64,000 nt of DNA from Ferrithrix thermotolerans DSM 19514 (GCA_945861025.1 CAMASN010000005.1:7239-71238), one strand, 5' to 3'; counted from the stretch's first letter, positions 19,785-64,000 are shown. Notes: generated by a model from the letters alone, not told the origin. Made by a program: numbers and translations.

Positions 19785-19864
19785 GAAGACCTCACTCTAG
19801 TTGCGTAGGCATCTGCCACGTGCTCAATCCAAGTGACCCGCCGAGGCGGCTAGCCTGTGCGCTT

Positions 19865-20194
19865 ATGCCAGCCAAGCCCGGTAGCGACAACACCAACGAC
19901 AACGAACTCGCCCAACTGCGTGCCGAAGTCGATCGCCTGCGTGCTCTCGTGGGACCCAACGAGCAGACATATATTCAGCTCAAGACCGAGATCTGGAGCG
20001 CCCGCGATGCGGTTATCGGCGCCGAAGCCGAGAACGGGTTGCTGCGCGGCCAAGTGAAGTCAATGCATGCGGCGGTTGCCCCAACACTGATGATCCATCA
20101 GTTCCTCAAAGACGAAGTGCTCTTGCGTGTCAAGCGGTGGCGTACCTACGTGCGTCGGTTGGTCATCAAGGTCGGCAAGAAGTTGCGCCGATGA
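19865..20194 (+). CDS. Small coiled-coil protein of unknown function
   Basis: MPAKPGSDNTNDNELAQLRAEVDRLRALVGPNEQTYIQLKTEIW... Its stop overlaps the ATG of the next GT gene (ATGA at 20191-20194). Confidence 0.5.
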   Translation: MPAKPGSDNTNDNELAQLRAEVDRLRALVGPNEQTYIQLKTEIWSARDAVIGAEAENGLLRGQVKSMHAAVAPTLMIHQFLKDEVLLRVKRWRTYVRRLVIKVGKKLRR

Positions 20195-21786: not shown

Positions 21787-21787
21787 G

Positions 21788-24052: not shown

Positions 24053-24264
24053 TGGCACTGATGTCACGACTGAGCCGACTCGTCGGTGGCCGTTCTAACG
24101 CGCAAACCACCGCCGGTTACCGTGAGGAGTTGCGGGCGCTACACATAAAGGTTGGGCGACTTGATGAAGAGCTTCACCAACTTCGCTCACAGATGCGCGA
24201 AACGGTCAACGATCTCGGCGATCGCATCGGCTCGGTGGCGGAACGGCTTAACTCGGCCCCGTAA
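24052..24264 (+). CDS. Small coiled-coil protein of unknown function
   Basis: MALMSRLSRLVGGRSNAQTTAGYREELRALHIKVGRLDEELHQLRSQMRETVNDLGDRIGSVAERLNSAP. The ATG overlaps the TGA of the preceding GT gene by 1 nt. Confidence 0.45.
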   Translation: MALMSRLSRLVGGRSNAQTTAGYREELRALHIKVGRLDEELHQLRSQMRETVNDLGDRIGSVAERLNSAP

Positions 24265-24283
24265 CGCGCCGATAGATCAGGTG

Positions 24284-28806: not shown

Positions 28807-28902
28807 TGATCGAGACACTCGGGTTCGGGTGTCTCTGAGCCGCACAGGATTTCCTTCGCTGATGGGTGATACCGGAGGAATCAACTGGCCAAGTCTAGCA
28901 TT

Positions 28903-29274
28903 GTGACCATGAGCGTCATTGTGAAGCAGAGCGCTGTCATCTTCGTGTGCGGGGCAGCATTGCTCGTGCTCACCGTCAGGTTGCTGCATCGCCGCCGCTT
29001 GTCATTCCACTATGCATCGGGCTGGGTGGCGGTGTCGCTGGCGGTCATTGCATCGTCGTTGCTCACCCCGTTGGTTGGCCCTGTTGCCCGGCTGTTCTCG
29101 ATGAGTGGCACAGCAGTGTTTCTTGTGGTGGCGGTTGGTTTCGTTGTGGCGATGTGTCTGCAGTTGTCGATCAGCGTCTCGTTGTTGCACGAGCGTGCGC
29201 GTGACCTTGCCGAGGCCAACGCAATGCTGCGCGCCGAGCTCGATCGTCGCATTCCAGCATCTGACACTCACTGA
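28903..29274 (+). CDS. Small 3-4 TM membrane protein, DUF2304-like
   Basis: 123 aa. Hydrophobic helices, then a C-terminal amphipathic tail LHERARDLAEANAMLRAELDRR. ATGA-coupled to the following GT2, which is the usual genomic context of DUF2304-type proteins. Confidence 0.65.
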   Translation: MTMSVIVKQSAVIFVCGAALLVLTVRLLHRRRLSFHYASGWVAVSLAVIASSLLTPLVGPVARLFSMSGTAVFLVVAVGFVVAMCLQLSISVSLLHERARDLAEANAMLRAELDRRIPASDTH

Positions 29275-46615: not shown

Positions 46616-46972
46616 TTAGCCCGAGATCAGCGTGTACGACGGATTCAGCATCACGCGCCGGCCGCGCTCGTCGTGCGCAACGCCTTCGATGACCATTGCT
46701 CGACCGTGCTCGATGCCACGAATGGCGCGTCGGCCGGTAAAGACTGCAACCGCATCGCCGGTGCCATCGGATACCACGATCTCGAGTGCCGGAATGCCCT
46801 TGCGCGGAGCGACCCGAATGCGCCTCACTTCTCCACCAACTCGCGAAGATATGCGGCACTGCAGTTCAGAGATGGGCATGAGCTTGAGATCGGTGAAGCG
46901 TTCCTGCAGTCGCTCGGCATCAAGATTCTCGGGCTTCGACTTCAGACGGTGGGCGAGGTCGCGAAGTCCCAT
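46616..46972 (-). CDS. OB-fold nucleic-acid-binding domain protein
   Basis: 118 aa. ...VGGEVRRIRVAPRKGIPALEIVVSDGTGDAVAVFTGRR... Its position after the trkA pair is conserved in actinobacteria. Confidence 0.7.
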   Translation of the reverse strand: MGLRDLAHRLKSKPENLDAERLQERFTDLKLMPISELQCRISSRVGGEVRRIRVAPRKGIPALEIVVSDGTGDAVAVFTGRRAIRGIEHGRAMVIEGVAHDERGRRVMLNPSYTLISG

Positions 46973-47574
46973 CAGTTGCCTGCAATCGTGTTTGCGAGGG
47001 CGTCATCGAGGGCCTTCTCGTTGATCGTGCCAAGAGAGGTGGTGGTTGTTCCATTTGGCGAAACAAAGGCCCATGCGGGTTGCGCCGGCACACCGAAGCG
47101 GGCGAAGAGATCGCCGGTTTGATCGTTCATGTTCGCAAAGGTGATGCCGTGACGGTCGATGAACGCCTGCATTGAGTCTTCGTCGCCGTTCCATGCCACA
47201 CCGACGACCGTGATCTTGTCGGCCCACTTCTTGCTTGCCGCCTCGACCGAGGCAGCTTCTGCGTTGCACGCACTTCAACCAGGTGCCCAGAACCAAAAGG
47301 CGACGGGTCTACCGATGAACGAGGCAGCATCGATCTGGCCGCCGCCGACAGTTGCTGAGGTGAATGCCAAGAGGCCCGACGGCGAGCTTGATCCGGTTGT
47401 TGGCTCGGCGGTTGGTGAGGTGGGCGTCGAGAGAATCGATGCGGAGCTTTCGGCCACGGTTGTTGGCTCGGCGGTCGTGATCTTCGCAGAGCTTCCGCAA
47501 GCCGTAAGTGCGGCGGCAGCGGTGATCAAAGCGACTGTGCGTATCGCGCGCCGGTGAAGTAGAGCGGGGTCCAT
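46972..47574 (-). CDS. TlpA/ResA-like thioredoxin-fold lipoprotein interrupted by one in-frame TGA (47275-47277) at the first CXXC position; candidate selenoprotein or pseudogene
   Basis: Track ORFs 47275..47961 and 46972..47199 are in the same frame. The joined product is MDPALLHRRAIRTVALITAAAALTAC(lipobox)...GRPVAFWFWAPG-TGA-SACNAEAASVEAASKKWADKITVVGVAWNGDED...FGVPAQPAWAFV. Confidence 0.6.
47237..47256 (-). other. mRNA hairpin downstream of the in-frame UGA (candidate bacterial SECIS apical stem-loop)
   Basis: Minus-strand RNA GCUGCCUC-GGUC-GAGGCGGC: an 8-bp stem with one U.G pair and a GGUC tetraloop. The stem starts 18 nt after the UGA. Confidence 0.35.
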
Positions 47575-47635
47575 TTGCGCAACCCTATCGAGATTCGAGT
47601 AGGTGTGGGCCGCACTGGTTCGTAGTCTGTGGGGG

Positions 47636-48067
47636 ATGAAGACCCGAACGTTGCTCTTGCTTGCAGTTACGTGCGGGCTCGTGATCTTGTTGGCCGGCAG
47701 CATCAAGTTGTTCGGTATCGGTGAGGAGCGACAGGCGAAGCATCTCACGGTTGGCCAAAGCGACACCATTGGCGATATGAAGGTCACGGTTGTGTCGGTC
47801 AAGCGTGAACTCGGTCTCATCCTGGTTTCGGTCACGCTGGTCGGCGCCGACGACGCCAACGGAGCCACTACGTGGAAACTCGGATTGGGCACCGATGCAA
47901 ACCTTGCTCCGGTGGCTACACCGCCAGAGGCTGGCGCGCAGTGCGCCGCCACGAAGGCCACTCAGCCCACCTCGTGCGTGTTGGCGTTCGTCACCTCAAA
48001 GACTCTCGGCGTGTTGCTCTACGAACGCGCCGGAGAGACTCGCCGCTGGGATATTGATCTGCCATAA
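47636..48067 (+). CDS. Hypothetical exported or membrane-anchored protein
   Basis: MKTRTLLLLAVTCGLVILLAGS N-terminus, preceded by a G-rich RBS-like tract. No family recognised. Confidence 0.55.
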   Translation: MKTRTLLLLAVTCGLVILLAGSIKLFGIGEERQAKHLTVGQSDTIGDMKVTVVSVKRELGLILVSVTLVGADDANGATTWKLGLGTDANLAPVATPPEAGAQCAATKATQPTSCVLAFVTSKTLGVLLYERAGETRRWDIDLP

Positions 48068-49644: not shown

Positions 49645-51051
49645 ATGGCTGACATCACGTTGCCACAACTCGGCGAGACAGTGACCGAGGGAACGATCAC
49701 GCGCTGGTTCAAAAAGGTCGGTGACGCGGTCACGGCCGATGAGCCATTGTTCGAAGTGTCTACCGACAAGGTCGACACCGAAGTGCCAGCGCCGAGCAGC
49801 GGAGTGTTGCTTGAGATTCGCGCCCAAGAAGGCGACACGGTTCCCGTTGGAGCAATCATCGCCGTGGTGGGCGCAGCCGATGGTGCAGCACCATCCCCGG
49901 CTCCCACGCCACCACCCGCACCCGCAGTTGTTGCCGCTCCAGCGCCGCCACCGCCACCCCCCACCGCGGTGGTGCCACCCCCGGCCCCAGCTCCAGCTCC
50001 AGCCGTTGCGCCCGTGCCGATGAGCCCGATTGCCGCAGCTGTTGCAGCCGCGGCCGACGTGGCCGCAGGTGTCGACGACAACCGCTTGTTGTCGCCAGTA
50101 GTGCGCCGTTTAGTGGCCGAACACAACATCGATACTGCGTCGCTCGTGGGCACCGGTCCCGGCGGAAGAATCACTCGTGAAGATGTGCTTGATCGCATCG
50201 ATTCGATGGCGGCCAATGCAGCTCCTGCGCCTGCGCCTGCGGTGGCGCCAACCCCAGCGCCTGCTCCGGCGCCAGCGCCAGTCGCAGCCGCTCCTGTGGC
50301 CGCCCCAGCACCGGCACCGGCATCGGCGGCAAGCGACGAGCGCGACGATGTTGTGAAGCTCAGCAAGATCCGCAAACTCACCGGTGCGCACATGGTGATG
50401 AGCAAAGGTGTGAGCCCCCATGCGTTCAGCGTTGTCGAGGTCGACTTCGCGAATGTCGATTCCGCACGCAACAAGATCAAGGACTCGTGGAAAGCCGACG
50501 AAGGCTTCGGCATCACGTATCTGAGCTTCATTACCCGTGCCGTTGTCGACGCATTGCGCGAGTTTCCACATCTCAACGCCACCGTCGATGGCGACAACCT
50601 CATCGTGCACAACTTTGTCGATCTCGGCATCGCTGTAGACCTCGACTACAGCGGTCTGCTGGTGCCGGTTATCCGCGGCGCAGAGACCAAGCGCTTGCGC
50701 GCTATCGCTCGCGAGATCAACGATCTCGGCACGCGGGCTCGTGGTCGCAAGCTCGGTCCCGATGAGATCTCTGGCGGCACCTTCACCATCAGCAACAATG
50801 GCTCCGCCGGCAGCGTGCTCACGATGGCCATCATCAACCAGCCTCAGGTGGCGATTTTGTCTACCGATGCAATCGTTCGCAAGCCGGTTGTTGTGCGGTC
50901 GGCAGATGGTGGCGAAAGCATCGCAATTCACCCAATGGGCAACCTTGCGATGAGCTGGGACCATCGGGCATTCGATGGCGCGTATGCCGCCGGTTTCTTG
51001 GTCAAGGTGAAGTCACTGCTCGAGACCCGCGATTGGGGTGCCGAGCTCTGA
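49645..51051 (+). CDS. 2-oxoacid dehydrogenase E2 dihydrolipoamide acyltransferase
   Basis: One lipoyl domain (EVSTDKVDTEVPAP), Pro/Ala linkers, the PSBD (LSPVVRRLVAEHNIDTASLVGTGPGGRITREDV) and the catalytic domain (SWDHRAFDGA). Confidence 0.92.
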   Translation: MADITLPQLGETVTEGTITRWFKKVGDAVTADEPLFEVSTDKVDTEVPAPSSGVLLEIRAQEGDTVPVGAIIAVVGAADGAAPSPAPTPPPAPAVVAAPAPPPPPPTAVVPPPAPAPAPAVAPVPMSPIAAAVAAAADVAAGVDDNRLLSPVVRRLVAEHNIDTASLVGTGPGGRITREDVLDRIDSMAANAAPAPAPAVAPTPAPAPAPAPVAAAPVAAPAPAPASAASDERDDVVKLSKIRKLTGAHMVMSKGVSPHAFSVVEVDFANVDSARNKIKDSWKADEGFGITYLSFITRAVVDALREFPHLNATVDGDNLIVHNFVDLGIAVDLDYSGLLVPVIRGAETKRLRAIAREINDLGTRARGRKLGPDEISGGTFTISNNGSAGSVLTMAIINQPQVAILSTDAIVRKPVVVRSADGGESIAIHPMGNLAMSWDHRAFDGAYAAGFLVKVKSLLETRDWGAEL

Positions 51052-52781
51052 TGAGCTCTTCCGTCGGGCCACTGCATGTGCGTTGGCTCGGCCGCGTTCC
51101 ATACGGCGAAGCGTTGGCGGTGCAGAACGCGTTGTTCGAACACGGATCACGCAACCACTTGTTGCTGCTCGAGCATCGTCATGTGTTTACCCATGGTTCG
51201 CGCGCCGATGTATCGGCCAACGTGTTGGTAGATCCGGCCTCGGTTGGCGCCGAACTGCTGGCGGTGAACCGCGGTGGCGATGTCACGTATCACGGCCCTG
51301 GCCAACTGGTGGGTTACCCGGTGTTGTCGCTGAATCCCAAATACGGCGGCGCCGCTGGCCCTGCCGACACGGTGGCGCATGTGCGCAATGTCGAGCAACT
51401 CATTATCGATGCGCTCGGCGAACTTGGTGTGCCCAATGCCGGACGCCTCGCCGAGTATCCAGGCGTGTGGGTCGAGCCCGACGGGCCGAATCCACGCAAG
51501 ATTTGTGCCATTGGAGTTCGCGTGTCGCGAGGTCGAAGCATGCACGGATTCGGGATCAACGTGAGCACCGATATGCGCTACTTGCGCGAGTACATCGTTG
51601 CGTGCGGCATCACCGATCGCCCAGTTACGTCGCTGCTCGAAGAAGGCATCGATGCGTCGATGGCCGATGTCGTCGATGTCGTCGCTCGTCTCGCTGCAGT
51701 GCGTTGGGGAAACGGTGCCGCCGAGCGTCAAGACGTGGCGTGGCGTGAGCGCCCCGACGACCTGTCTGCGTTTTCGCGCGGCGAAGGTCCGGGCGCGCCA
51801 GTGCGTTCTGCCAGCGACCATGGCGTGACGCAACCTCAGCGCGACGACCCGGCTCGGCCAGAGCCGGTGCGCATGCGGGCGCGTTTGGCGCAAGCTGGGG
51901 TTACCGAGTCGGTTGCGCTGAGCGACCGCAAACCCGAGTGGCTGCGGCCTAAGGTGCAGCTTGGCGCCGAGGTGCTGGCGCTGAAACGAACCGTGCGCGA
52001 CCTCAATCTCGTCACCGTGTGCGAAGAAGCTGGGTGCCCCAATCTCAGCGAATGTTGGGCCGATGGCACAGCAACGTTCATGGTGCTTGGCGAACGCTGC
52101 ACGCGTGCGTGTGGGTTTTGTCTTGTCGACACGAACAAGCCGCTGCCCCCGTCGAGCGACGAACCCCAACGCGTGGCTGAAGCCATCGAGCGAATGGGTG
52201 TGTCGCATGCAGTGCTCACGATGGTGGCCCGCGACGACCTCGACGACGGCGGCATGGCTCACGTTGCAGCATGCGTTGAGGCGATTCATCTTCGTTGCCC
52301 CACCACGCGCGTCGAGACGCTCATCTCCGACTGCAAGGGCGACGCAGACGCATTGTCGTTGCTGTTTGCTGCCCGTCCAGATGTGCTCAACCACAACGTC
52401 GAGACCGTGCCTCGATTGCAGCGTGCGGTTCGGCCGTCTGCCGGGTATGCGCGCAGCCTCAGCGTGTTGGCGCGGGCCAAGGCGGCTGGCCTTGTGACGA
52501 AGTCTGGCTTTGTCTTGGGTATGGGCGAAACGGTCGACGAGGTCGATGGCGTGTTGCTCGACCTTGCTTCGATCGGCGTCGACGTCGTGACCATTGGACA
52601 GTACCTGCGGCCAACATCGAACCACTTGCCGGTGCAACGGTGGATCGATCCAGCCGAGTTTCAACGCTGGAAGGCGCTTGGCGAATCGGTGGGCATTGGT
52701 CACGTCGAATCCAGCCCGCTCACGCGTAGCAGCTATCACGCTCGTCAATCTGCCGAAGCTGTTGAGGCACGCATCGGCTGA
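51051..52781 (+). CDS. lipB-lipA: Single continuous ORF encoding octanoyltransferase LipB (N-terminal) and lipoyl synthase LipA (C-terminal)
   Basis: LipB: HLLLLEHRHVFTHG...VNRGGDVTYHGPGQLVGYP...KICAIGVRV. A roughly 60-aa linker follows. LipA: RKPEWLRPKV...VCEEAGCPNLSECW...GERCTRACGFC. No stop codon lies between the two. A possible internal LipA start is the ATG at 51873. Confidence 0.8.
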   Translation: MSSSVGPLHVRWLGRVPYGEALAVQNALFEHGSRNHLLLLEHRHVFTHGSRADVSANVLVDPASVGAELLAVNRGGDVTYHGPGQLVGYPVLSLNPKYGGAAGPADTVAHVRNVEQLIIDALGELGVPNAGRLAEYPGVWVEPDGPNPRKICAIGVRVSRGRSMHGFGINVSTDMRYLREYIVACGITDRPVTSLLEEGIDASMADVVDVVARLAAVRWGNGAAERQDVAWRERPDDLSAFSRGEGPGAPVRSASDHGVTQPQRDDPARPEPVRMRARLAQAGVTESVALSDRKPEWLRPKVQLGAEVLALKRTVRDLNLVTVCEEAGCPNLSECWADGTATFMVLGERCTRACGFCLVDTNKPLPPSSDEPQRVAEAIERMGVSHAVLTMVARDDLDDGGMAHVAACVEAIHLRCPTTRVETLISDCKGDADALSLLFAARPDVLNHNVETVPRLQRAVRPSAGYARSLSVLARAKAAGLVTKSGFVLGMGETVDEVDGVLLDLASIGVDVVTIGQYLRPTSNHLPVQRWIDPAEFQRWKALGESVGIGHVESSPLTRSSYHARQSAEAVEARIG

Positions 52782-52810
52782 CGGCCGTTGGTTTCGGGCA
52801 GAATGGTGCC

Positions 52811-53947
52811 ATGCAAACTCCAGGCGCCGCAGCTCCTTTGTCTACTGCCGTATACGCCGATCGTCTCGATCGTGCACGCGCCCAGATGCGTGACAAGAAC
52901 ATCGATGTGCTGTTGCTCTCGCTGGGCCTCGACCTGCCCTACATCACCGGCTATCACGCGATGCCGCTCGAGCGTCTCACAATGTTGGTGGTGCCCCGCG
53001 AAGGTGAAGCGCGCATGGTGATCCCGCGCATGGAAGCGCCACGTGTAGCGCCCCAGCCCGGCGTGTTCGAGATCTATCCGTGGGGAGAAACCGAGAACCC
53101 GGTTGAGATCGTTGCTCGTCTCGCCCGCGAAGCTGGGGCCACGCACAACGTGGCGGTAGGCGATCAGATGTGGGCGCGTTTTTTAGTTGAGCTGTTGCCG
53201 TTGTTGCCTGGCGCTCACTATCAGCGAGCCGATGTGGTCACCTCGATGCGCATGGCCAAGGACGCCGACGAGATCGCAGCATTGTTCGCCGCTGGCGCTG
53301 CAGTCGATCGAATTGCTGGCGAACTCCAGGCTGGAAACATCGGCTTGGTTGGACGCACCGAAGCAGCCGTGTCGGCCGATCTGGGCGAACGCATTTTGGC
53401 CGAAGGTCATCAGGTGGTGAACTTCGCGATTGTTGCCGCAGGCGAAAATGCAGCGTCGCCGCACCACAGCCCCGGCGATCGCGTGATCCGCAAGAACGAG
53501 ATTTTGCTGTGCGATTTCGGTGGCACGATGAACGGCTACTGCAGCGATATCACCCGCTGCGTGTATTTGGGTACGCCCCCCGCAGAGGTAGTTGATGCCT
53601 ACGCGGTGCTGCAAGAAGCTCAGGCCGCAGCCGTTGCTGCTGGCGTTGTCGGTGCCCCGTGCGAAGAGGTCGACCGCGCGGCGCGGCGCATCATCACAGC
53701 GGCCGGTTACGGCGACTATTTCTTTCATCGCACTGGGCACGGCATCGGCATGGAGGCCCACGAAGATCCATACATGGTCGAGGGCAACTCGCTGCCGCTC
53801 GCTGCCGGACACGCCTTCAGCGTTGAGCCCGGCATCTATGTCGAGGGCAAGTGGGGCATGCGTCTCGAAGACATTGTGGTGGCATCCGCCGATGGCCCAG
53901 TGCCGATGAACTCGGCCCGGCACGAACTGGCCTGCCTCGACGTGTAG
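52811..53947 (+). CDS. M24-family Xaa-Pro aminopeptidase/dipeptidase
   Basis: Creatinase-like N-terminal domain plus ...CDFGGTMNGYCSDITR...FHRTGHGIGMEAHE...GHAFSVEPGIY...MRLED. Confidence 0.85.
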   Translation: MQTPGAAAPLSTAVYADRLDRARAQMRDKNIDVLLLSLGLDLPYITGYHAMPLERLTMLVVPREGEARMVIPRMEAPRVAPQPGVFEIYPWGETENPVEIVARLAREAGATHNVAVGDQMWARFLVELLPLLPGAHYQRADVVTSMRMAKDADEIAALFAAGAAVDRIAGELQAGNIGLVGRTEAAVSADLGERILAEGHQVVNFAIVAAGENAASPHHSPGDRVIRKNEILLCDFGGTMNGYCSDITRCVYLGTPPAEVVDAYAVLQEAQAAAVAAGVVGAPCEEVDRAARRIITAAGYGDYFFHRTGHGIGMEAHEDPYMVEGNSLPLAAGHAFSVEPGIYVEGKWGMRLEDIVVASADGPVPMNSARHELACLDV

Positions 53948-54013
53948 CCCGCCGCGTGAGTCGAGATCGGTCTGAACACGTTTTTCAGCTGCTCAAGATG
54001 TAATAATTCGCCC

Positions 54014-55381
54014 ATGACAGCGCTCGACGATCAGCCCGGCATCGATACCCGACTCCCATGGCACATGCGTGGCAACTATGCCCCGGTGATGGATGAGGTC
54101 GAAGCATTCGATCTGCCCGTCATTGGCAAACTGCCAGCCGATCTCAACGGTCGCTATTTCCGTAACGGTGCCAACCCGATGAACGCCCCCACGCTGCATT
54201 GGTTTGCGGGCGACGGAATGATTCATGGCATCCGCATTCGCGACGGCAAGGCCGAGTGGTATCGCAACCGTCTCGTGCGCACCAAGGCGCTCGCCGGTGT
54301 CGATCGTTTCGACATGACAAACGGCGCGATGGACCTCACTGTTGGTCTGGCCAACACGCACATCGTGAGCCACGCCAACCGCATCTTGGCGCTCGAAGAG
54401 GGCAGCTTGCCCAACGAGTTGTCGAACGAACTCGACACGCTTGGGCCATACAACTTCGAGGGCCGTCTCGATACGCCGATGACCGCGCACCCGCACACGT
54501 GCGCCGAGACCGGCGAGATGCATTTCTTCGGGTACGGATTTATGCCGCCGTTCGTCACGTATCACGTGGCCGATGCTGGCGGACAGTTGGTGCACACTCA
54601 GGCCATCGATGTGCCTGGTCCAACGATGATCCACGACTTTGCGATCAGCCGCAACTACGCGATCTTCCTCGACCTTCCCGTCACCTTCAATATCGAAGAC
54701 GCAATGTCGGGTGGCATGCCGTTCGGTTGGGAAGAGGGCTACGGAGCTCGCATTGGTTTGTTGAACCGAGAGGCAGCGCGGCGTGGCGAGCAGCCACGCT
54801 GGTTCGACATCGACCTGTGCTACATCTTCCACATCATGAACGCATGGGACGATGGTCCCGATGGTCACACGGTGTGGCTCGACGCTGGTCGTCACGCAAG
54901 CATGTGGCAGGGCGGCGCCGACAAGTTTGAGCCGTGCTACCTGTGGCGCTGGCGCTTCGATCTCAACACGGGCACTGTGCACGAAGAGCAACTCGACGAC
55001 CGCGAGCACGCTTTTCCGCGCATCGACGATCGTCGCTGCGGGTTGCAGAACAAGGTCGGCTGGGCATTGAGCTCGCGTGATCAAGGTTCAAGCGAGATGG
55101 ACGGCTCGAGCGTGTTTCTCAAGTACGACCTTGCCAAGGGAACAAGCGAAGTGCACGACTTCGGCCCAACCACCGTGTCGGGCGAGCCAGTGTTTGTGCC
55201 CGCCGCAAACGGCACTGCCGAGGACGATGGCTACGTGATTACATACCTCTACGACAAGGCCACTCAGAGTTCATCGTTCGTGGTGCTCGATGCGCGCGAC
55301 ATGGGTGCAGAGCCACTGGCGATTGTGCCGCTACCGCAGCGAGTGCCGTTTGGCTTTCACGGCAGCTGGATCGCCGACTGA
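54014..55381 (+). CDS. Carotenoid oxygenase (RPE65/CCD) family dioxygenase
   Basis: NYAPV...GRYFRNGANP...HWFAGDGMIHGIRI...NTHIVSHANRILAL...MIHDFAISRNYAIF...FHGSW. Confidence 0.85.
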   Translation: MTALDDQPGIDTRLPWHMRGNYAPVMDEVEAFDLPVIGKLPADLNGRYFRNGANPMNAPTLHWFAGDGMIHGIRIRDGKAEWYRNRLVRTKALAGVDRFDMTNGAMDLTVGLANTHIVSHANRILALEEGSLPNELSNELDTLGPYNFEGRLDTPMTAHPHTCAETGEMHFFGYGFMPPFVTYHVADAGGQLVHTQAIDVPGPTMIHDFAISRNYAIFLDLPVTFNIEDAMSGGMPFGWEEGYGARIGLLNREAARRGEQPRWFDIDLCYIFHIMNAWDDGPDGHTVWLDAGRHASMWQGGADKFEPCYLWRWRFDLNTGTVHEEQLDDREHAFPRIDDRRCGLQNKVGWALSSRDQGSSEMDGSSVFLKYDLAKGTSEVHDFGPTTVSGEPVFVPAANGTAEDDGYVITYLYDKATQSSSFVVLDARDMGAEPLAIVPLPQRVPFGFHGSWIAD

Positions 55382-55457
55382 AACGTTGTTCGTTGAGAAC
55401 GAGTTGATGGAGCCAAGCTGGGGTTGCCCCCAGCCGGCTCGGTCACAACTGTTGGGC

Positions 55458-56660
55458 TCAGAGGCCTGACTTCTCGAGGATGTGGATGCCACATGCCGAG
55501 CCGAGGCCGATGACATGGGCCAAGCCAACCTTGGCGCCTTGGATCTGACGATCGCCAGCCTCGCCGCGCAGGTGATGACACACTTCCCAGACGTTGGCAA
55601 TGCCGGTGGCTGCGATGGGGTGACCCTTTGACTCGAGGCCGCCCGACACGTTGACCGGGGTTGAGCCATCGCGCCATGTGGCGCCGCTCTTGAAGAAGTC
55701 GGCAGCTTCGCCTGGCTTGCACAGACCGAGGTTGTCGTAATGCACGAGCTCGGCTGTGGCGAAGCAGTCGTGCAGCTCAACGAGGTCGAGGTCTTCGGGG
55801 CCGATGCCAGCCTTGGCGTACGCCTGAGCGGCGGCACTTCGGGTGAGCGTGTTCACATCGGGGAGCACCTGGCAGGCCTCTTCGTATGGATCAGAGGTGA
55901 GCACCGACGCCGAGATCTTGACCGCACGGCGCTGCTGCTCGAGCGACAAGGTCTTGAGCTTGGCATCGCTCACCAGCACCGCTGCGGCGCCGCCGTCGCA
56001 GTTGGCTGAGCACATGGCGCGGGTGTTTGGATACGCGATCATCATGTCGTTCATGATCTCGTCGAGGGTGAAGCGCTTCTGGTAGGCAGCCAACGGGTTG
56101 AGCGTTGAGTGAGCGTGGTTCTTCTCGCTGATCTGAGCGAACAATTTGAAGTCGGCGCCGCCGTACTTGTGGGCGTATTCCATGCCGACCTGAGCGAACA
56201 CGCCAGGCATGGTGTCGGTGCCAATGCGGCCATCGGTTGAGGCCACTGCGCCGTAACGGCCAGCGCGGTTCCAGGTCTTGCCGTCGTCTTTGCGGTTGCC
56301 GCCCGACAACAGGCCAACGCCGCTGAGCTTCTCGACGCCTACAGCGAGACCGAAGTCGCACTCGCCGCTCTTGATCGACATGTAGGCAACGCGCAACGCC
56401 GTGGCGCCGGTGGCGCAAGCGTTCGACACGTTGTAGGCCGGGATGCCGGTCTGGCCGATCTGCTTTTGGATCATCTGGGCAATACCGCCGCCGCCCATCA
56501 GGCAACCTGCGGCCAACACGCCCATGTCGGCCATGGTGACACCGCCGTCGGCAAGCGCGGCCATCGCTGCTTGCGCAGCGAGGTCGACGGTGTCTTTGTC
56601 GGTGTGCTTACCGAACTTGGTCATGTTGATCCCGAGGATCCAAACGTCGCCGCTAGACAT
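55458..56660 (-). CDS. Thiolase-like protein (SCP-x / lipid-transfer type)
   Basis: 400 aa. VSNACATGATALRVA (active-site Cys)...ELHDCFATAE...NVSGGLESKGHPIAATG. Confidence 0.85.
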   Translation of the reverse strand: MSSGDVWILGINMTKFGKHTDKDTVDLAAQAAMAALADGGVTMADMGVLAAGCLMGGGGIAQMIQKQIGQTGIPAYNVSNACATGATALRVAYMSIKSGECDFGLAVGVEKLSGVGLLSGGNRKDDGKTWNRAGRYGAVASTDGRIGTDTMPGVFAQVGMEYAHKYGGADFKLFAQISEKNHAHSTLNPLAAYQKRFTLDEIMNDMMIAYPNTRAMCSANCDGGAAAVLVSDAKLKTLSLEQQRRAVKISASVLTSDPYEEACQVLPDVNTLTRSAAAQAYAKAGIGPEDLDLVELHDCFATAELVHYDNLGLCKPGEAADFFKSGATWRDGSTPVNVSGGLESKGHPIAATGIANVWEVCHHLRGEAGDRQIQGAKVGLAHVIGLGSACGIHILEKSGL

Positions 56661-56733
56661 GGCTACTCCTTACAAGTGAGTTCTGAGAGTTCTTATTAGT
56701 TGATGAAGAAAGGGTCCTGACCTGTGATGCAGA

Positions 56734-57177
56734 TCAGGAGATAGGTTCGAAGGCGAAGTTGACGGCTTCGGTGCCGGCCTCGTCGCTGCCGACGACATAG
56801 GTGGTGAGGCGCACCTTCATGCCGAGCGACACGTGCTCTGGGTCGGCAGTGACGTTGGTGAGGTTGCCGCGAACGCTGGTGCCGTCGCACTCGATGATGG
56901 CCGACACGAACGGCACAGGGATGCCTGGCGCAGCGAACGCCACGATGGTGAACGAGCGCACGAAGCCTTCGGTGGCGATGTCAGCGTCGGCGAACGACGT
57001 ACCAAAGCACGATGCGCAGGCGTTGCGGCGATCGAAGAACCGGGCGCCACACGAGGTGCACTGGTGGGCGACAAGGTGAGGGGTGGGGGCGAGATGGAGA
57101 TACTCGACGAAGGGAATCTGTTCGGACACGAAGTCATTCTTCAGGACTCGGTGGACAAAAGGCAAAGCGGAGGACAC
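56734..57177 (-). CDS. DUF35 Zn-ribbon / OB-fold protein (thiolase partner)
   Basis: CTSCGARFFDRRNACASC zinc ribbon, then an OB-like region. Lies directly upstream of the thiolase gene. Confidence 0.8.
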   Translation of the reverse strand: MSSALPFVHRVLKNDFVSEQIPFVEYLHLAPTPHLVAHQCTSCGARFFDRRNACASCFGTSFADADIATEGFVRSFTIVAFAAPGIPVPFVSAIIECDGTSVRGNLTNVTADPEHVSLGMKVRLTTYVVGSDEAGTEAVNFAFEPIS

Positions 57178-57235
57178 GCCCGATCACCCACTCGTGCAAT
57201 AACGTCACGTTGAGATTCGCTGAGAGGGGTCCGCA

Positions 57236-58948
57236 ATGTTGGATGTAGTGATCACTGGAGGCAAGGTCATCGACGGCACCGGCCGTGCCGCCGTTGCTGC
57301 CGATATCGGAATTCGCGATGGTGTCATCGTCGAGATTGGTGATGTAACCGAGGCCGCGCGCCAACGTATTGATGCCACCGATCAGGTGGTGGCCCCTGGG
57401 TTCATCGACATTCACACCCACTACGACGCGCAGGCTTTTTGGGACACCACGCTGAGTCCGTCGCCGTTACACGGAGTCACCACCGTGATGGGCGGCAACT
57501 GCGGTTTCACGATTGCGCCGCTTGCCCCAGAAGACGGCGATTACCTGATGCGTATGTTGGCCCGAGTCGAGGGCATGCCACTCGAGTCGCTGCAGCAAGG
57601 TGTGCCGTGGGACTGGCGTACAACTGGCGAATACCTCGACCGCCTCGACGGCACCTTGATGCCCAACGCTGGTTTCTTGGTTGGGCACTCGGCCATTCGT
57701 CGCAGCGTGCTCAAAGACCAAGCCACCGAGCGAGCGGCCACTCCCGAAGAGATCGTGAAGATGCAGAACCTGTTGCGCGAAGGCCTCGCTGCCGGCGGCA
57801 TGGGTTTTTCTTCCACATGGTCCACCTCGCACAACGACCACACCGGCTCGCCAGTTCCGTCTCGCCATGGCACCCGTGAAGAACTCGTAGCTCTGTGCAG
57901 CGTCGTACGCGAGTTCCCTGGAACCACGCTTGAGTTCATCCCGCAGGTGGGTCGCTTTACCGACGAGTCGTTCGATCTCATGGCCGCGATGAGCGTTGCG
58001 GCCAACCGTCCGCTCAACTGGAACTTGTTGCAGGTCCAGACTCAAAACTGGGAGCAGGTTCAGCATCAGCTCACGGGCGGAGACATCGCCGAGGCCAAGG
58101 GAGGGCGCGTCTTGGCGCTCACGTTGCCCGACACGTTCCGTCTGCGCTTGAACCTGCGCAGCGGTTTCGTACTCGATATCTTGCCGGGATGGGACAAGCT
58201 CATGGCGCTCGCTCCTGCGACCAAGCTGGCGATGCTGCGCGATCCTGCGGGCCGCGTCGAGATGAATCGCCTTGCGCAATCGGCGCCAGAACCGATGCGC
58301 TCGTTGGCCAACTGGGGCACCTACACGTTGCTCGAAACCTTCAGCGAAAACTGGAAGCGGTTTGAGGGTCTCACCATCGGGGCGATTGCCACCGAACTCA
58401 ACAAAGACTCGTGGGACGCGCTGGTCGACATCGCGATCGACGACGATCTCAAAACCGTCATCGCCAGTATGGATACCGGCCAAACCGATGCCAGTTGGGA
58501 AAAGCGCGTCGAGGTGTGGCGCGACCCTCGAGCCATCGTTGGTGCATCCGACGCCGGAGCCCACCTCGACATGATCGACAGCTTCAGCTACGCCACCACG
58601 TTGATTGCTCGCACCACCGTCGATCGCGAGCTACTGCCACTCGAAGAAGCCGTGCACTACCTCACCGGCGCGCCGGCGGCGTTGTATGGCCTGAAGGGCC
58701 GTGGCACGTTGGCAGTGGGTAACGCTGCCGACATCGTTGTATTCGATCGCCACAACATTGGTCCGGGCGAGGTGTTCACCAAGTTCGACCTACCTGGCGG
58801 CGCTGGTCGTGTCTACGGCGAGGCCAACGGCATTAGTCATGTGCTCGTGAACGGTGTGCCGTGCGTGCAGCATGGCGAGATGCTCGATGCTCGACCCGGC
58901 ACGTTGCTGCGTAGCGGCCGCGACACAAACACCGTGCGGGTGCAATAG
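57236..58948 (+). CDS. Amidohydrolase, N-acyl-D-amino-acid deacylase (D-aminoacylase) family
   Basis: DVVITGGKVIDGTG...IRDGVIVEIGD...APGFIDIHTHYD...GASDAGAHLD. Confidence 0.85.
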   Translation: MLDVVITGGKVIDGTGRAAVAADIGIRDGVIVEIGDVTEAARQRIDATDQVVAPGFIDIHTHYDAQAFWDTTLSPSPLHGVTTVMGGNCGFTIAPLAPEDGDYLMRMLARVEGMPLESLQQGVPWDWRTTGEYLDRLDGTLMPNAGFLVGHSAIRRSVLKDQATERAATPEEIVKMQNLLREGLAAGGMGFSSTWSTSHNDHTGSPVPSRHGTREELVALCSVVREFPGTTLEFIPQVGRFTDESFDLMAAMSVAANRPLNWNLLQVQTQNWEQVQHQLTGGDIAEAKGGRVLALTLPDTFRLRLNLRSGFVLDILPGWDKLMALAPATKLAMLRDPAGRVEMNRLAQSAPEPMRSLANWGTYTLLETFSENWKRFEGLTIGAIATELNKDSWDALVDIAIDDDLKTVIASMDTGQTDASWEKRVEVWRDPRAIVGASDAGAHLDMIDSFSYATTLIARTTVDRELLPLEEAVHYLTGAPAALYGLKGRGTLAVGNAADIVVFDRHNIGPGEVFTKFDLPGGAGRVYGEANGISHVLVNGVPCVQHGEMLDARPGTLLRSGRDTNTVRVQ

Positions 58949-58957
58949 CCCTTTGGC

Positions 58958-59578
58958 CTACTGGCCGGTGAGCGAAGTGTTGAACAACTTGATATCCACC
59001 GTGTCGGTCAGCCCGGTGAGCGTGATGAGCAGGTCGGGTGTGTTTTGATAGGCGAGCATGCCGTTTTCGAGCACGCAGTACTTCTTGGTGCCACTGGTGA
59101 AGCTGAGTTGCGCACACGTGGCGTTCTGATCGACAAATTGCTCAACCGATGCGATTGCCGGGCCAACCATCGCGGTGACATCTTGGCGAATGCGTGATGC
59201 CGGCGCCGAGCCATAGAACTCGTGCGTCACCGAGAGATTGCTGATGGTGGCGTCGTTGGCGCCGATTGAGCACTGCCCGGTAGACAACGTGCACGTGCGG
59301 AAGCCGCCCTGCGACTGCAGGAAGCGAATGTCGCCAAAGGTGATCGAACGTTCGCTTTCGTTCTGGATCGCAACGGTCACGGGCGTGACGAAATTGCCGA
59401 ATCGGGTGAGCAGCGAATAGTTCGCGGTGAACGGGCCGATGGATGTATCGAGCCTGCTGAGGACTGCCTCGATAGCTGGGTCTGACTGCGAGCCGAACGA
59501 CGGGCGCTCGCCGGTGATGCACCCGCTGAAGAGCAGAGGGGCAACTGCGGCGACGGCGAAAGAGCGGAAGAAACGCAT
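58958..59578 (-). CDS. Hypothetical lipoprotein
   Basis: MRFFRSFAVAAVAPLLFSGC (lipobox LFSGC). No family recognised. Confidence 0.6.
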   Translation of the reverse strand: MRFFRSFAVAAVAPLLFSGCITGERPSFGSQSDPAIEAVLSRLDTSIGPFTANYSLLTRFGNFVTPVTVAIQNESERSITFGDIRFLQSQGGFRTCTLSTGQCSIGANDATISNLSVTHEFYGSAPASRIRQDVTAMVGPAIASVEQFVDQNATCAQLSFTSGTKKYCVLENGMLAYQNTPDLLITLTGLTDTVDIKLFNTSLTGQ

Positions 59579-59646
59579 ACGAGTTGCGATCGTAGGGGAT
59601 GAACTGAGCGAAACGGTGTCTGTCGCCCCTTGCGCGCCTATCGTCG

Positions 59647-60408
59647 GTGATCGTGATCCGTATCGACGCCGCCACCGTATTGCTGCAGTGGTCCACTGGT
59701 GGAATGTTTTTCTTGTGGTTCACCACCCGGCGCCGAGTCGTTGGCGCTGGCTACGGGTGGCTGCTACGTGGCGTCTATTTGCTGATGGCCTTTGGCGCGC
59801 TGGGGTGCGGTTTGCGCTTTGGCTCCGAAGTTGTGCGCGAGATTGCATCGTTCGGTGTGGGCATCGCTGCGTTGGTCACGCTTGTGGTGTCAATCGTGCG
59901 ACGCCGCGACGATCGCTTTGCTCCGTGGCTCGATCTGGTGGCTCCAGCGATTGGTCTGGTAGGTCTTGTTGCCGCTGGCATTGGCGCAGGCGGAAACGAT
60001 CTGGTTGCAGTGATCCGCACGGTGGTGGGCGCAGCCTTTCTTGGTGCGGTCACCGACGCCATGTTGCTTGGCCACTGGTATCTGGTGCAGCCAGGTCTGC
60101 CTCGCAGCCTGCTGAACGAATTGGTGCAGGTCACGCAGTATGCGTTGCCTGTTGAGGTGGCCGCCTTATTGTTGCCCACCGGCATGCTCAGCGTGCTCAG
60201 CGGCACCGTTTCCGACGGCTGGAATGGCACGCTCGGGTACTTCTGGGTGGCGTGTTCAATCACCACGGCCGTGTTGTGCTGGGTCACCAAGCGAGCGCTT
60301 CGCGAGCGGTATTACTCGGCAGTGATGGCCGCTACCGGCCTGCTGTATCTCGCAATTCTTACTGCCTTCGGCACCGACCTGGTCGCCCGAGCGGTGCTTG
60401 CTGGCTAG
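59647..60408 (+). CDS. Hypothetical polytopic membrane protein
   Basis: 253-aa ORF with about 7 hydrophobic segments. GTG start is uncertain. Confidence 0.55.
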   Translation: MIVIRIDAATVLLQWSTGGMFFLWFTTRRRVVGAGYGWLLRGVYLLMAFGALGCGLRFGSEVVREIASFGVGIAALVTLVVSIVRRRDDRFAPWLDLVAPAIGLVGLVAAGIGAGGNDLVAVIRTVVGAAFLGAVTDAMLLGHWYLVQPGLPRSLLNELVQVTQYALPVEVAALLLPTGMLSVLSGTVSDGWNGTLGYFWVACSITTAVLCWVTKRALRERYYSAVMAATGLLYLAILTAFGTDLVARAVLAG

Positions 60409-60430
60409 TCCCGCTTTAGCATCGGCGGTC

Positions 60431-61591
60431 ATGCAGCAGATTCCGCGCACCCTGTTCAACGACGATCACGATCAGTTCCGCAGCGCCTTTCGAGCGTGGC
60501 TCGACAACGAGGTCGTTCCGAACCATGAGCAGTGGGAGCGCGATGGCCTCGTGTCTCGCGAGATTTGGCTCGAAGCCGGACGACACGGATTCCTTGGTCT
60601 CACGGTTCCCGAGAAGTTCGGTGGCGGCGGAACCGACGACTACCGCTTTGCGGCCGTCATGGCCGAAGAGATCGGCATGACCGGTGTCATTGGTAGCGCC
60701 AACGGCATGACCCTGCACAACGACATCGTGCTGCCCTACTTCGTGAGCCTGTGCAACGAAGAGCAGCAACAGCGGTGGTTGCCCGGCATGGTCACCGGCG
60801 AACGCATCGGTGCAATCGCGATGACCGAGCCGCACACCGGCAGCGATCTCGTAGGCATCAAGACCACAGCGGTGCGTCATGGCGACTCATTTGTGGTGAA
60901 CGGCGCCAAGACGTTTATCTCGAACGGCATCCTCAGCGACGCCGTCATCACCGTGGTGAAGACCGATCCATCAAAGGCGCATCGCGGGATGAGTCTGCTT
61001 GTGCTCGAGCGGGGCATGCCCGGCTTCGAGCGTGGCCGCAACCTCGACAAGATGGGAATGCACGCTCAAGACACCGCCGAGTTGTTCTTCACCGATGTCG
61101 AGGTGCCCGCCGCCAACATGCTTGGTGACGAAGGCATGGGCTTCATGTACTTGATGACCAACCTCGCTCAAGAGCGCCTCGGCATTGCGATTGGCGCAGT
61201 GGCGGTTGCCCAAGCAGCGTTGAACTGGACCGTTGACTACACCACCGAGCGCAAGGCGTTCGGTCAGTCGATTGCGCACTTTCAGCACAGCAAGTTCTTG
61301 CTCGCCGAACTCGCGACCGAAGTGCAGATTGCGCAGGTGTACGCCGACCGCTGTATCGAGTTGCATCTCAATCAGGCGCTGACTGTCGAGCAGGCTGCGG
61401 CCGCCAAGTTCTGGTGCACCGAACTGCAGAACAAGGTGGTCGATCGTTGCGTGCAACTGCATGGCGGTTACGGCTACATGCGTGAGTACCCCATCGCTCG
61501 GGCGTGGGCCGACAGCCGTATTCAGACCATTTACGGCGGCACCAGCGAGATCATGAAAGAGATCGTGGGCCGCAGCGTGGTGGGCGGCTAG
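60431..61591 (+). CDS. Acyl-CoA dehydrogenase
   Basis: Start MQQIPRTLFNDDHDQFR...AMTEPHTGSDL...QLHGGYGYMREYPIARAWADSRIQTIYGGTSEIMKEI. Confidence 0.9.
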   Translation: MQQIPRTLFNDDHDQFRSAFRAWLDNEVVPNHEQWERDGLVSREIWLEAGRHGFLGLTVPEKFGGGGTDDYRFAAVMAEEIGMTGVIGSANGMTLHNDIVLPYFVSLCNEEQQQRWLPGMVTGERIGAIAMTEPHTGSDLVGIKTTAVRHGDSFVVNGAKTFISNGILSDAVITVVKTDPSKAHRGMSLLVLERGMPGFERGRNLDKMGMHAQDTAELFFTDVEVPAANMLGDEGMGFMYLMTNLAQERLGIAIGAVAVAQAALNWTVDYTTERKAFGQSIAHFQHSKFLLAELATEVQIAQVYADRCIELHLNQALTVEQAAAAKFWCTELQNKVVDRCVQLHGGYGYMREYPIARAWADSRIQTIYGGTSEIMKEIVGRSVVGG

Positions 61592-61594
61592 CGC

Positions 61595-62941
61595 TTAGGC
61601 GCGAGCACGAACGCCGCGACTGGCAGCGAGGCCAAGCACAGCGCACAGGGCGGCCAGTGCGAAGTTCACGCCGACGGCGCTCTGCAAGGTGGCCGAGGTG
61701 CGATCAGCGAATGCAACCGTCGAGCCGCCGAGAACACCCATCATTCCAAAGCCGAGCGAATCAGCGAGATGGATCTGGCTGCTGATCTCTCCTTCGCGCC
61801 CGTCGTCGGCGTAGCTCATTGAGGCGACGGTGGTGGGGTTAAACAATATGCCCATACCGAAGCCGCCGATTGCCCAAGTGGCGAACACTAGTGGCAACGG
61901 CCACGACGGCGATAGCACCGGCGCAACCGTGGCGATGCCAATCAGCAAGAAGCCAAAGCCCATAGCCGACACTCGACCAGGGTTGATGCGGTCGACGCGG
62001 CGTGCTGTCACTGCTTGGCCGATGGTCCACGTGATGGCTGCGCCGGAGATGACGAAGCCCTGCACGATGGGTCGAGCGCCGTGGAGTCGGTCGGCTGCAA
62101 GGGGCACGAAACTGTCGACGCCTAAGAATGTGGCGGTAGCGAGAAATCGAACGGCGACGATGGCGGGCAGGCCCCGTCGAGCTCGAAACACTCCGGCGGG
62201 GAGCATGAACCGCAACGCGGGAAGGGCGATGGCGATGCCGGCAATGCACAGTGGCGCGGCCAACAGCAGATGCTTGTTCTGGAGGCCGGCGGCCAAAATG
62301 CCCACTCCGGCGGAGGCCTGAAAGGCGCGGTGCAAGCGCGTTGGCCGGCGATCGATGATTACCTCGGATGGCGCGAGGTGAGCCATGGCGCGAGCCGTGA
62401 GCAATGCAACTGCAGCGGCAAGTGGAGCGATGCCAATGAAGACCCAGCGCCATCCGGCGCGGTCGACAACGACGCCTGCAATCACCGGCCCGAGCAAACT
62501 GGGCAACACCCAGCCAGCGCTGAGGTATGCGTACATCGAGGCTTGGCGCTCAACTGGAAAGGCGCGGCGAACAGCGATGTACGACAGCGGAGCGAAGCCG
62601 CCGCTTCCGGCTCCCTGCAATAGGCGACCGATGAGCACCATCGTCATCGACTGCGCCGTGGCGGCAACGACGAGTCCGATCACAAAGATTCCGATACACG
62701 CGAGGAATGGTCGACGCACACCGTGGAGGTCGGCCTGCTCGCCAGCCCACACTAAGGCCACGAGGTCGGCCAGCATGTAGGCCGCAAGGGTGGCGCCATA
62801 CAACGAGTCGCCGCTCAGTGCCTCGGCGATGGTGGGTAGCGCCGTAATGACGGCGGTTGATTCGAATGCAACAAGCGTGACACTGAGTACGAGTCCAACG
62901 GCGAGAGCGCGCTGGCTCGCATCGAGGGGGACGCGTGTCAT
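61595..62941 (-). CDS. MFS transporter
   Basis: 448 aa, about 14 TM segments, with the GRLLQGAGSGG motif. Confidence 0.85.
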   Translation of the reverse strand: MTRVPLDASQRALAVGLVLSVTLVAFESTAVITALPTIAEALSGDSLYGATLAAYMLADLVALVWAGEQADLHGVRRPFLACIGIFVIGLVVAATAQSMTMVLIGRLLQGAGSGGFAPLSYIAVRRAFPVERQASMYAYLSAGWVLPSLLGPVIAGVVVDRAGWRWVFIGIAPLAAAVALLTARAMAHLAPSEVIIDRRPTRLHRAFQASAGVGILAAGLQNKHLLLAAPLCIAGIAIALPALRFMLPAGVFRARRGLPAIVAVRFLATATFLGVDSFVPLAADRLHGARPIVQGFVISGAAITWTIGQAVTARRVDRINPGRVSAMGFGFLLIGIATVAPVLSPSWPLPLVFATWAIGGFGMGILFNPTTVASMSYADDGREGEISSQIHLADSLGFGMMGVLGGSTVAFADRTSATLQSAVGVNFALAALCAVLGLAASRGVRARA

Positions 62942-62971
62942 CGTGGCCAGTCTAAAGACGGGTCGTTGTGT

Positions 62972-64000
62972 TTAGCCCCGGGCGACAGATGGGGCCACGA
63001 GTGGCCACGGCTGCGTGCGCTCAATCATCAGCGAGGCGTCGAGCAGCAACTGCTCAGAGTAGTGGCGACCAACGATCTGCAGACCAACGGGTAAACCGTC
63101 GATGGTGCCAGCCGGAACGCTGACCGCTGGGTTGCCGTGCAGGTTTGCGGGGAACGTAAGGCGACCGTTGTTGGCGGCGCCAGCAGTGAGGCCGCCGAAC
63201 TCGCTTGGCAACGGACCCTCGGCGCCGAACGCGATGTCGGGGTTGCTGGCCGTGATGACAAAGTCGACTTCGGAGAAAATCTGAGCCATGCGCTCGTTGA
63301 GTTCCATACGACGGTCTTCGATCTTGGCGCGTGCCTCGACGCCGTAGCGGCCCAAGGTCTGCTCAATGCCCATGCGAATTTCGGGGGTGAGTACGTCTTT
63401 GCATTCGGGCCAATAGGCGGCGAGTTGCGCGTGAATCTCGATCATGCCGCTGATGGACCACGCCGCGCCCATGCTGGGCAGGCTGATGTCGACTCCGTCG
63501 ATGCGGCGCATGCCAGCATTGGCGATGAGATCGTCGGCAACGTTTTCGAGCACGACCCACATCGCGGGCGATATAACGGCGCCGCCCCAGTCGGGGACCA
63601 CCGCAACGCGCATGCCGCGCAGTGTCTCGGTGTGAGCGCCGAGTTCGCTTTCCCAACCGCTGGTGCGGGGCAGGCTGAACTGGTCGCGGGCGTCGTAGCC
63701 GTTGCACACGTCGAACCAGCGCGCTGTGTCGCGCACCGACCGGCTGAGACAACCGGTGGTGACGGTCATGTTGCCGATGGTGGTGCGTGGGGCGCGTGGA
63801 ATGCGGCCGAAGGTTGCCTTGAGGCCGAACAGGCCGGTGAAGCCAGCGGGGATGCGGATCGAGCCGCCCCCGTCGCCGCCCGTTGCGATCGTGACAAGAC
63901 CGCCAGCAACCGCAGCGCCCGTGCCGCCGCTTGAGCCGCCGGGCGTGTGCGCCGTGTTCCACGGGTTCAGGGTGGCGCCGTGCAACACGGTGCGGGTGAG
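62972..64000 (-). CDS. Amidase-signature family amidase; N-terminus beyond the window edge
   Basis: The frame stays open to position 64000. GGSSGGTGAAVAGG...GGDGGGSIRIPA (amidase signature Ser-cisSer-Lys region). Confidence 0.85.
   Translation of the reverse strand, partial: LTRTVLHGATLNPWNTAHTPGGSSGGTGAAVAGGLVTIATGGDGGGSIRIPAGFTGLFGLKATFGRIPRAPRTTIGNMTVTTGCLSRSVRDTARWFDVCNGYDARDQFSLPRTSGWESELGAHTETLRGMRVAVVPDWGGAVISPAMWVVLENVADDLIANAGMRRIDGVDISLPSMGAAWSISGMIEIHAQLAAYWPECKDVLTPEIRMGIEQTLGRYGVEARAKIEDRRMELNERMAQIFSEVDFVITASNPDIAFGAEGPLPSEFGGLTAGAANNGRLTFPANLHGNPAVSVPAGTIDGLPVGLQIVGRHYSEQLLLDASLMIERTQPWPLVAPSVARG

Follow-up and report, generated by a model that had tools for sequence, protein, structure and literature searches.

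Thioredoxin-fold selenoproteins with a UxxC active site, in which selenocysteine (Sec, U) takes the place of the first Cys of a CxxC motif, were catalogued in 2005-2008 and again in a 2026 review (PMC1088965, PMC2398784, PMC13188914). The kinds described include Prx-like thiol:disulfide oxidoreductases (PF00578), Prx-like 1/3 proteins (Prx-like 3 being PF08534) and a TlpA-like thiol-disulfide isomerase-like kind (cd02966) (PMC13188914 Table 1; PMC2398784 Table 2). Among proteins with an ordinary CxxC site, the nearest relatives of solved structure for the gene treated here are DsbE (MPT53, Rv2878c; 1LU4) and DsbF (Rv1677; 3IOS) of M. tuberculosis, two secreted or lipid-anchored actinobacterial thioredoxin-fold proteins that both aid oxidative folding in vitro (PMC3853704). 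In this study, we examine an in-frame TGA at positions 47275-47277 on the minus strand of a 64,000-nucleotide stretch of DNA (hereafter the window) from Ferrithrix thermotolerans DSM 19514 (GCA_945861025.1 CAMASN010000005.1:7239-71238), where it lies within a gene for a redoxin. We will argue that this TGA is very probably a real Sec codon, in what is predicted to be an exported, lipid-anchored enzyme of thiol-disulfide exchange that belongs to the DsbE/DsbF (MPT53) branch and has a TlpA-like fold.

The redoxin of the window has in common with the known Prx-like and TlpA-like UxxC selenoproteins the Pfam families, the UxxC motif and the placement of Sec at the nucleophilic position, and those families were likewise predicted from an in-frame UGA, Cys homologues and a bacterial Sec insertion sequence (SECIS) (PMC13188914; PMC2398784; PMC1088965). 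They come from Deltaproteobacteria and marine reads, whereas the present protein is a predicted Acidimicrobiia lipoprotein of the DsbE/DsbF type, found mainly in lakes and soils; this distinction is drawn from the published descriptions, and the protein may belong to one of the known families. With DsbE and DsbF the redoxin shares the context WFW-x-P-x-CxxC-N/Q-x-EAP. These two proteins differ in having Cys instead of Sec at the first active-site position, and they are also devoid of the hairpin sequence that follows the UGA, their protein sequence at that place being EAPSLS or EAPVVG compared to EAPSVE in the Sec redoxin.

The features of the gene are the following:

46972..47574, minus strand: complete selenoprotein gene, 200 codons including the proposed UGA-Sec at codon 100, plus stop
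47497..47574, minus strand: predicted signal peptide, read from the sequence, ending in the lipobox L-T-A-C (47497-47508)
47377..47496, minus strand: low-complexity Thr/Pro/Ser/Ala linker, residues 27-66 (about 40 residues)
46975..47376, minus strand: thioredoxin-fold domain of the DsbE/DsbF (MPT53) type, residues 67-200, from Pfam and PDB matches
47278, minus strand: U directly preceding the UGA (GGU or ACU codons), in 67 of 68 distinct sequences (alignment column 12)
47275..47277, minus strand: in-frame UGA at residue 100, very probably read as Sec; TGA conserved at the homologous codon
47266..47277, minus strand: active-site motif U-S-A-C, the CxxC equivalent, aligned to CPFC of 1LU4 and CPTC of 3IOS
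47237..47256, minus strand: bacterial SECIS hairpin (proposed), with 5' arm 47249-47256, GGUC loop 47245-47248 and 3' arm 47237-47244
46972..46974, minus strand: true stop codon, TGA, overlapping the ATG of the next gene (TGATG)

An earlier note on this DNA had observed that two open reading frames (ORFs) on the minus strand lie in one frame and are separated by this TGA only, and translation of 46972-47961 bears this out, the sole interruption being the TGA at 47275-47277. From the ATG at 47572-47574, a Met start that is conserved among the orthologues (RVAQM.., RVARM.., RVAHM..), read-through to the TGA at 46972-46974 yields a protein of 200 residues, in agreement with the roughly 200-codon redoxin with lipoprotein signal and Thr/Pro/Ser linker that the note had described. 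The protein contains MDPALLHRRAIRTVALITAAAALTAC, with the lipobox LTAC, followed by the linker, and around the stop codon it reads ...GRPVAFWFWAPG-[TGA]-SAC-NAEAASVE.... Cys26 is predicted to be the first residue of the mature protein and would be lipidated; of 88 family members, 81 have a lipobox-like motif ahead of the domain, as judged by a pattern match and not by a dedicated predictor. The length and the sequence of the linker vary freely between orthologues.

When the stop is replaced by Cys, the translated product scores above the Pfam cut-offs for both AhpC-TSA (PF00578; 45.9 bits against 26) and Redoxin (PF08534; 39.7 against 26.6). Its best matches among solved structures are MPT53/DsbE (1LU4, E 2.6e-25) and DsbF (3IOS, E 3.6e-21), and the TGA aligns with the first Cys of their CxxC motifs, so the position assigned to it by the note, that of the nucleophilic Cys, is correct. 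The match to the two structures already fixes the predicted fold and the active-site position. The second active-site Cys is invariant in the family alignment, and the Q-P-A of the cis-Pro region (Q65, P66, A67) is invariant in 17 sequences; the Pro is presumably in the cis conformation. No selenoprotein-specific family and no ResA/DsbE/TlpA equivalog of NCBIfam is matched above its cut-off, the best being a ResA subfamily with 41.6 bits against 170. The tryptic peptide that spans residue 100 is PVAFWFWAPG-U-SACNAEAASVEAASK.

In some orthologues, e.g. L019 (upstream of 3001), a twin-arginine-like signal (TRRTFLGAGA...) precedes the lipobox, where the copy in the window has HRRAIRTV. The export route, twin-arginine translocation (Tat) or the general secretory pathway, may therefore differ between family members.

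The simplest way to dismiss the TGA would be an error of sequencing or assembly at 47275, which the note had listed as a competing explanation. Seven independent metagenome assemblies, however, contain exactly the same 603-nt gene, and two more have it with a single base changed. These nine assemblies (ENA GROS21, ERZ2728xxxx and Logan ERR3719165) derive from separate samples, assemblers and pipelines, and as an error has nothing in its favor beyond its prior possibility, we assign it no weight at all.

The second competing explanation of the note was a pseudogene, that is, a redoxin inactivated by a TGC/TGT-to-TGA nonsense mutation. To assess the conservation of the codon, one genome per species was scanned with a query made of the C-terminal half only, which keeps the Cys codon out of the pattern. 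This gave 15 species-level loci in metagenome-assembled genomes (MAGs) labelled Acidimicrobiaceae, Acidimicrobiales, Ilumatobacteraceae or Actinomycetota, apart from two cases where the labels look like misbinning (Bifidobacterium breve, Acidobacteria). TGA is present at the homologous codon in 14 of the 15, at protein identities of 47-90%, and the remaining one has TGC (L025). A scan of metagenomes gave 418 confirmed relatives, and all 80 loci that were kept, from lakes, soils, wastewater and the sea, have TGA; one of the two search patterns included the hairpin-encoded peptide, which makes this set somewhat enriched for Sec forms. Over the 100 codons 3' of the TGA, the ratio of nonsynonymous to synonymous divergence (dN/dS) among eight species is 0.04-0.29, with dS up to 1.4, and the 33 codons before the TGA behave in the same way.

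Purifying selection and an intact frame over such a distance are not what is expected of a dead gene. The pseudogene explanation can point to the gene being split by the callers in all public assemblies, and to the existence of a Cys-form orthologue. Against this stand the 94 loci from many species in which the TGA is kept, the low dN/dS of the intact downstream frame, and the RNA hairpin described below, which is conserved and covaries. Neither are these loci copies of one clone, with identities down to ca 47% and dS above 1. We consider a pseudogene to have only a minute chance of being correct.

Cysteine does occur at the position of the TGA, namely as TGC in P0001/L001 and L025, in addition to the solved homologues. 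Comparison with orthologues had been put forward by the note as a check, and it turned out in favor of recoding. The gene order lpdA, small protein, redoxin, OB-fold protein is kept also in the Cys-form genome L001, and the Sec and Cys forms can for this reason be taken as orthologues.

It is also relevant that TGA is an ordinary stop codon in these organisms. It ends 14 of the 26 confident genes of the window, and among 93 genes of the family the stops are TGA in 53 (the window gene being one of these), TAA in 24 and TAG in 16. Since TGA thus still ends genes, the recoding is specific to the site at codon 100. The U that precedes the UGA is kept despite a G+C content of ca 61%, and the base that follows is mostly A or G. 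The conserved U suggests that there may be a sequence-context requirement for the recoding.

One could also imagine that translation simply terminates at the UGA, to give a lipoprotein fragment of 99 residues, perhaps together with a C-terminal fragment that has its own initiation, and that the hairpin is a pause or attenuation signal. There is indeed a GTG at 47199 that opens a 75-aa ORF reported by the gene callers. However, the break would then cut one thioredoxin fold apart in the middle of its CxxC motif, and the residues between the UGA and the GTG (SACNAEAASVE...), including the invariant second Cys, are conserved as protein. Termination is thus very improbable.

The hairpin itself is as the note had described it: GCUGCCUC-GGUC-GAGGCGGC, with eight base pairs (one of them U.G) and a GGUC loop, at 47256-47237. 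Its stem begins 18 nt, and its loop 26 nt, downstream of the UGA. Judged from the sequence of the window alone, the fold is not exceptional (z = -0.89 for 66 nt), and it is the comparative data, not the single-sequence fold, that make the hairpin real. These data come from 68 distinct sequences. A 12-nt core, C-Y-U-C-GGUC-G-A-R-G, is fixed, with an invariant GGUC loop. Pair 39-48 is CG in 56 sequences, UA in 11 and UG in one, and is never unpaired, while pair 36-51 occurs as five pair types (CG 55, AU 3, UA 3, UG 2, GC 1). Position 37/50 is mismatched in 57 of the 68, which looks like a conserved 1x1 internal loop beneath a 4-bp apical stem in most members. The observed covariation score was reached by none of 500 shuffles, and slid registers score far lower.

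The codons point in the same direction. Where the stem has U-A in place of C-G, both of the paired substitutions are synonymous: the Pro codon CCC has become CCT, and the Glu codon GAG has become GAA. Within the hairpin, synonymous sites are frozen (Ser TCG in 83 of 83 and Val GTC in 83 of 83), whereas all other conserved degenerate codons of the gene use 2-4 synonyms, and TCG and GTC elsewhere in these genes each account for only ca 41% of their codon families. Two syntenic Cys-form orthologues encode PMVA or PTIE at the hairpin site, and neither folds into a SECIS hairpin there. The hairpin thus behaves as a functional RNA under selection. We have also considered the smaller hairpin, UGCGU-GCA-ACGCA, that the note had placed between the UGA and the main stem. 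It is present in the window (47260-47272), but only 45.6% of the cells are paired across the 68 relatives, and it was dropped as a part of the conserved element.

Taken together, these results show a UGA recoding that is conserved, site-specific and under selection, at the nucleophilic position of the CxxC site of a DsbE/DsbF-type protein. The note's interpretation as a UxxC selenoprotein is thus supported by the conservation of the TGA, the purifying selection downstream of it, the covarying hairpin, and the Cys forms that are without the hairpin.

The architecture resembles that of the E. coli fdhF SECIS element, a hairpin that also lies in the coding region just 3' of its UGA and presents GGUC in the loop; in both, the apical stem has four base pairs, below which there is an unpaired position, followed by G-C pairs. 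The loop at the present locus is several nt further from the UGA than in fdhF; a loop start 26 nt past the UGA falls within the spacing reported for bacterial SECIS elements. In place of the bulged U of fdhF there is the 1x1 mismatch, which is absent in the window's own copy.

We next consider the selenium machinery, for which the note had suggested a search of the genome. One component was found: an intact selD lies to the right of the window, ca 7.7-8.7 kb from its end and ca 24 kb from the UGA. It is located on contig L107 (249-1244, minus strand in the locus), which matches window positions 51595-64000 at 99.992% identity and is thereby placed in the same genome. The gene encodes 331 aa, scores 317.6 bits against a cut-off of 125 for TIGR00476, and has the Cys form of the SelD active site, GGCAAK. 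A second species likewise has both selD and the TGA-containing redoxin, on one 110-kb contig (JAYUWK010000070.1). The selD gene has many close relatives, some of them named Ilumatobacteraceae or Acidimicrobiales, and its pairing with RNase HII recurs in all four relatives examined. In the closer of these, a MOSC-domain gene precedes the pair; a weak 68-aa remnant of it is left in L110 and it is absent in L111.

A few kb from selD in the more distant relative L110 (16869-18621, minus strand), the gene for an ordinary Cys-type AhpC-TSA/Redoxin protein is flanked by SCO1/SenC and LpqE-like genes. This is probably a copper-delivery redoxin, unrelated to the selenoprotein.

A number of observations weigh against the assignment of the TGA as a Sec codon. 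Of the other components that had been proposed for the search, ARAGORN and tblastn with E. coli sequences detected no selA, selB or tRNA-Sec, either in the window or across ca 830 kb of related loci, which is the part of the sequence that the search covered; beside selD in the four relatives there is neither selA nor selB. A selD gene found by itself can be an orphan or have its role in another selenium pathway (PMC5029168). The sequence examined yielded no further selenoprotein gene. Regarding the hairpin, Rfam gave no SECIS family, neither for the whole window at the gathering score nor for 47150-47350 at E up to 10, the matches obtained being chance ones such as flavi_FSE. Furthermore, there is almost no variation at four of the eight stem pairs, of which two are invariant, which means that part of the support comes from frozen sequence and not from covariation.

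Two kinds of candidates for a second selenoprotein were rejected. A search with the frozen SECIS core motif gave three hits outside the gene, none of which is a candidate, and a generic search for a TGA followed by a GGUC-loop hairpin, with frames open on both sides, gave two hits that are both out-of-frame artefacts.

The absence of selA, selB and selC from what was searched also bears on the identity of the inserted residue. It is conceivable that the hairpin directs recoding of the UGA to something other than Sec, either to Cys, by means of a SelB-dependent tRNA(Sec)-like tRNA(Cys), or to Trp or Cys by near-cognate read-through. Versions of the Sec system that insert Cys are known from other bacteria. 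On the other hand, the same genome has an intact selD, whose product makes the selenium donor, and the GGUC loop is that of the E. coli fdhF SECIS. A UGA with a hairpin would, moreover, bring no gain for the insertion of Cys over a plain TGC, which the sister clade uses. Insertion of a residue other than Sec is accordingly improbable, although less so than the other alternatives above, and we infer that Sec is the residue inserted.

The note had called an exported UxxC selenoprotein unusual for an actinobacterium-like genome, but the use of Sec is less so in this group than it suggested. The genes selA, selB, selC and selD have been reported in all 84 complete genomes of the sister order Actinomarinales, with about five predicted selenoproteins per genome (bioRxiv 10.64898/2026.04.03.716425). 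That order belongs to the same class, Acidimicrobiia, and differs from the present bacteria in order and habitat; its SelD starts with MRLT..., like the SelD found here.

On the basis of these results, the following mechanism can be proposed. The UGA at codon 100 would be read as selenocysteine during translation, with the hairpin recruiting SelB carrying Sec-tRNA(Sec) to the ribosome. The protein would then be exported and lipidated on Cys26, and the Thr/Pro/Ser linker would hold it off the membrane. The U-x-x-C site may cycle between the selenol/thiol and selenenylsulfide forms, swapping disulfides with envelope or secreted proteins. As a first guess, the role could be that of an oxidase or an isomerase, since both solved homologues, DsbE and DsbF, act in oxidative folding in vitro (PMC3853704). 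No CcdA/DsbD, DsbB or VKOR partner is encoded near the redoxin gene.

The gene is mis-annotated throughout the public data. In public gene calls the redoxin is split: its C-terminal part appears as a fragment of 66-75 aa, and its N-terminal half is overlain by a spurious antisense ORF of 80 aa, as at L002 9416-9658 (minus strand) and 9774-10001 (plus strand), and likewise in L003-L011. This splitting explains why the selenoprotein is missing from protein databases. Among 5.8 billion predicted proteins, the Cys-substituted query had a single match, which is a Cys-form orthologue, and no full-length Sec form was found; the 99-aa N-terminal fragment has no protein database record either.

As a kind of protein, a UxxC thioredoxin-fold selenoprotein is already known. 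What may be new is the specific family, a predicted DsbE/DsbF-type lipoprotein, together with its hosts, lake and soil Acidimicrobiia, and its breadth. This possibility is raised by the literature search, in which no paper was found that connects selenocysteine with DsbE, DsbF or MPT53, by the lack of an NCBIfam name, and by the lack of a full-length form in the 5.8 billion proteins. The Actinomarinales preprint and its supplement (bioRxiv 10.64898/2026.04.03.716425) name no DsbE/DsbF-like or redoxin selenoprotein.

A more far-reaching proposal can be made only tentatively, and we hold it to be somewhat short of an even chance. According to it, the redoxin represents an undescribed selenoprotein family, lipid-anchored, exported, of the DsbE/DsbF type and with a nucleophilic Sec, which extends broadly across aerobic Acidimicrobiia of lakes and soils and which all public annotations examined either split or miss. 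This family may be a main reason for keeping the Sec machinery, and its SECIS would lie within helix alpha-1 after the active site, fixing both the RNA and the peptide E-A-P/A-S-V-E.

The mechanism of selenocysteine decoding is not new, and its understanding is unchanged by these results. Their significance lies elsewhere, in a widespread gene that is wrongly annotated and, given the redoxin and selD in one genome, in the evidence that freshwater and soil Acidimicrobiia, which are common but mostly uncultured, use selenium. The Sec and Cys forms are, in addition, a natural pair in a structurally solved family, DsbE/DsbF, and could reveal what selenium adds to extracytoplasmic disulfide exchange. 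If it is true that the redoxin drives the keeping of the Sec machinery, selenium would be a growth-relevant trace element for these abundant bacteria.

Finally, some features of the surroundings of the gene can be described. Directly downstream of the redoxin is the following gene:

46616..46972, minus strand: gene for a 118-aa OB-fold protein, its start overlapping the redoxin stop

Because of this overlap, the OB-fold gene is probably co-transcribed with the redoxin, and the pairing of the two is found also in L001 and close relatives. It is followed by two oppositely oriented trkA genes. Upstream, and divergent from the redoxin, come a small membrane-anchored protein and then the lpdA-E2-lipoyl synthase genes. 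The small protein (window 47603-48067, plus strand; 143-154 aa) has an N-terminal hydrophobic segment and no Pfam or NCBIfam match, and it sits between lpdA and the redoxin in the Cys-form L001 as well. Directly after the lpdA and E2 genes, the catalytic domain of a lipoate-protein ligase A/B and a lipoyl synthase (LIAS_N and Radical SAM) are fused in a single 582-aa ORF (window 51033-52781, plus strand); in related assemblies, a 576-aa version is called.

Further away, at ca 10750-29000, the window contains a cell-surface polysaccharide cluster. Besides a UDP-glucose dehydrogenase and a Wzt-type ABC ATPase, it includes several GT2/GT4 glycosyltransferases, one of them carrying a fused FkbM methyltransferase, as well as a DUF7657/DUF7654 protein and an ORF of 927 aa that matches no family.

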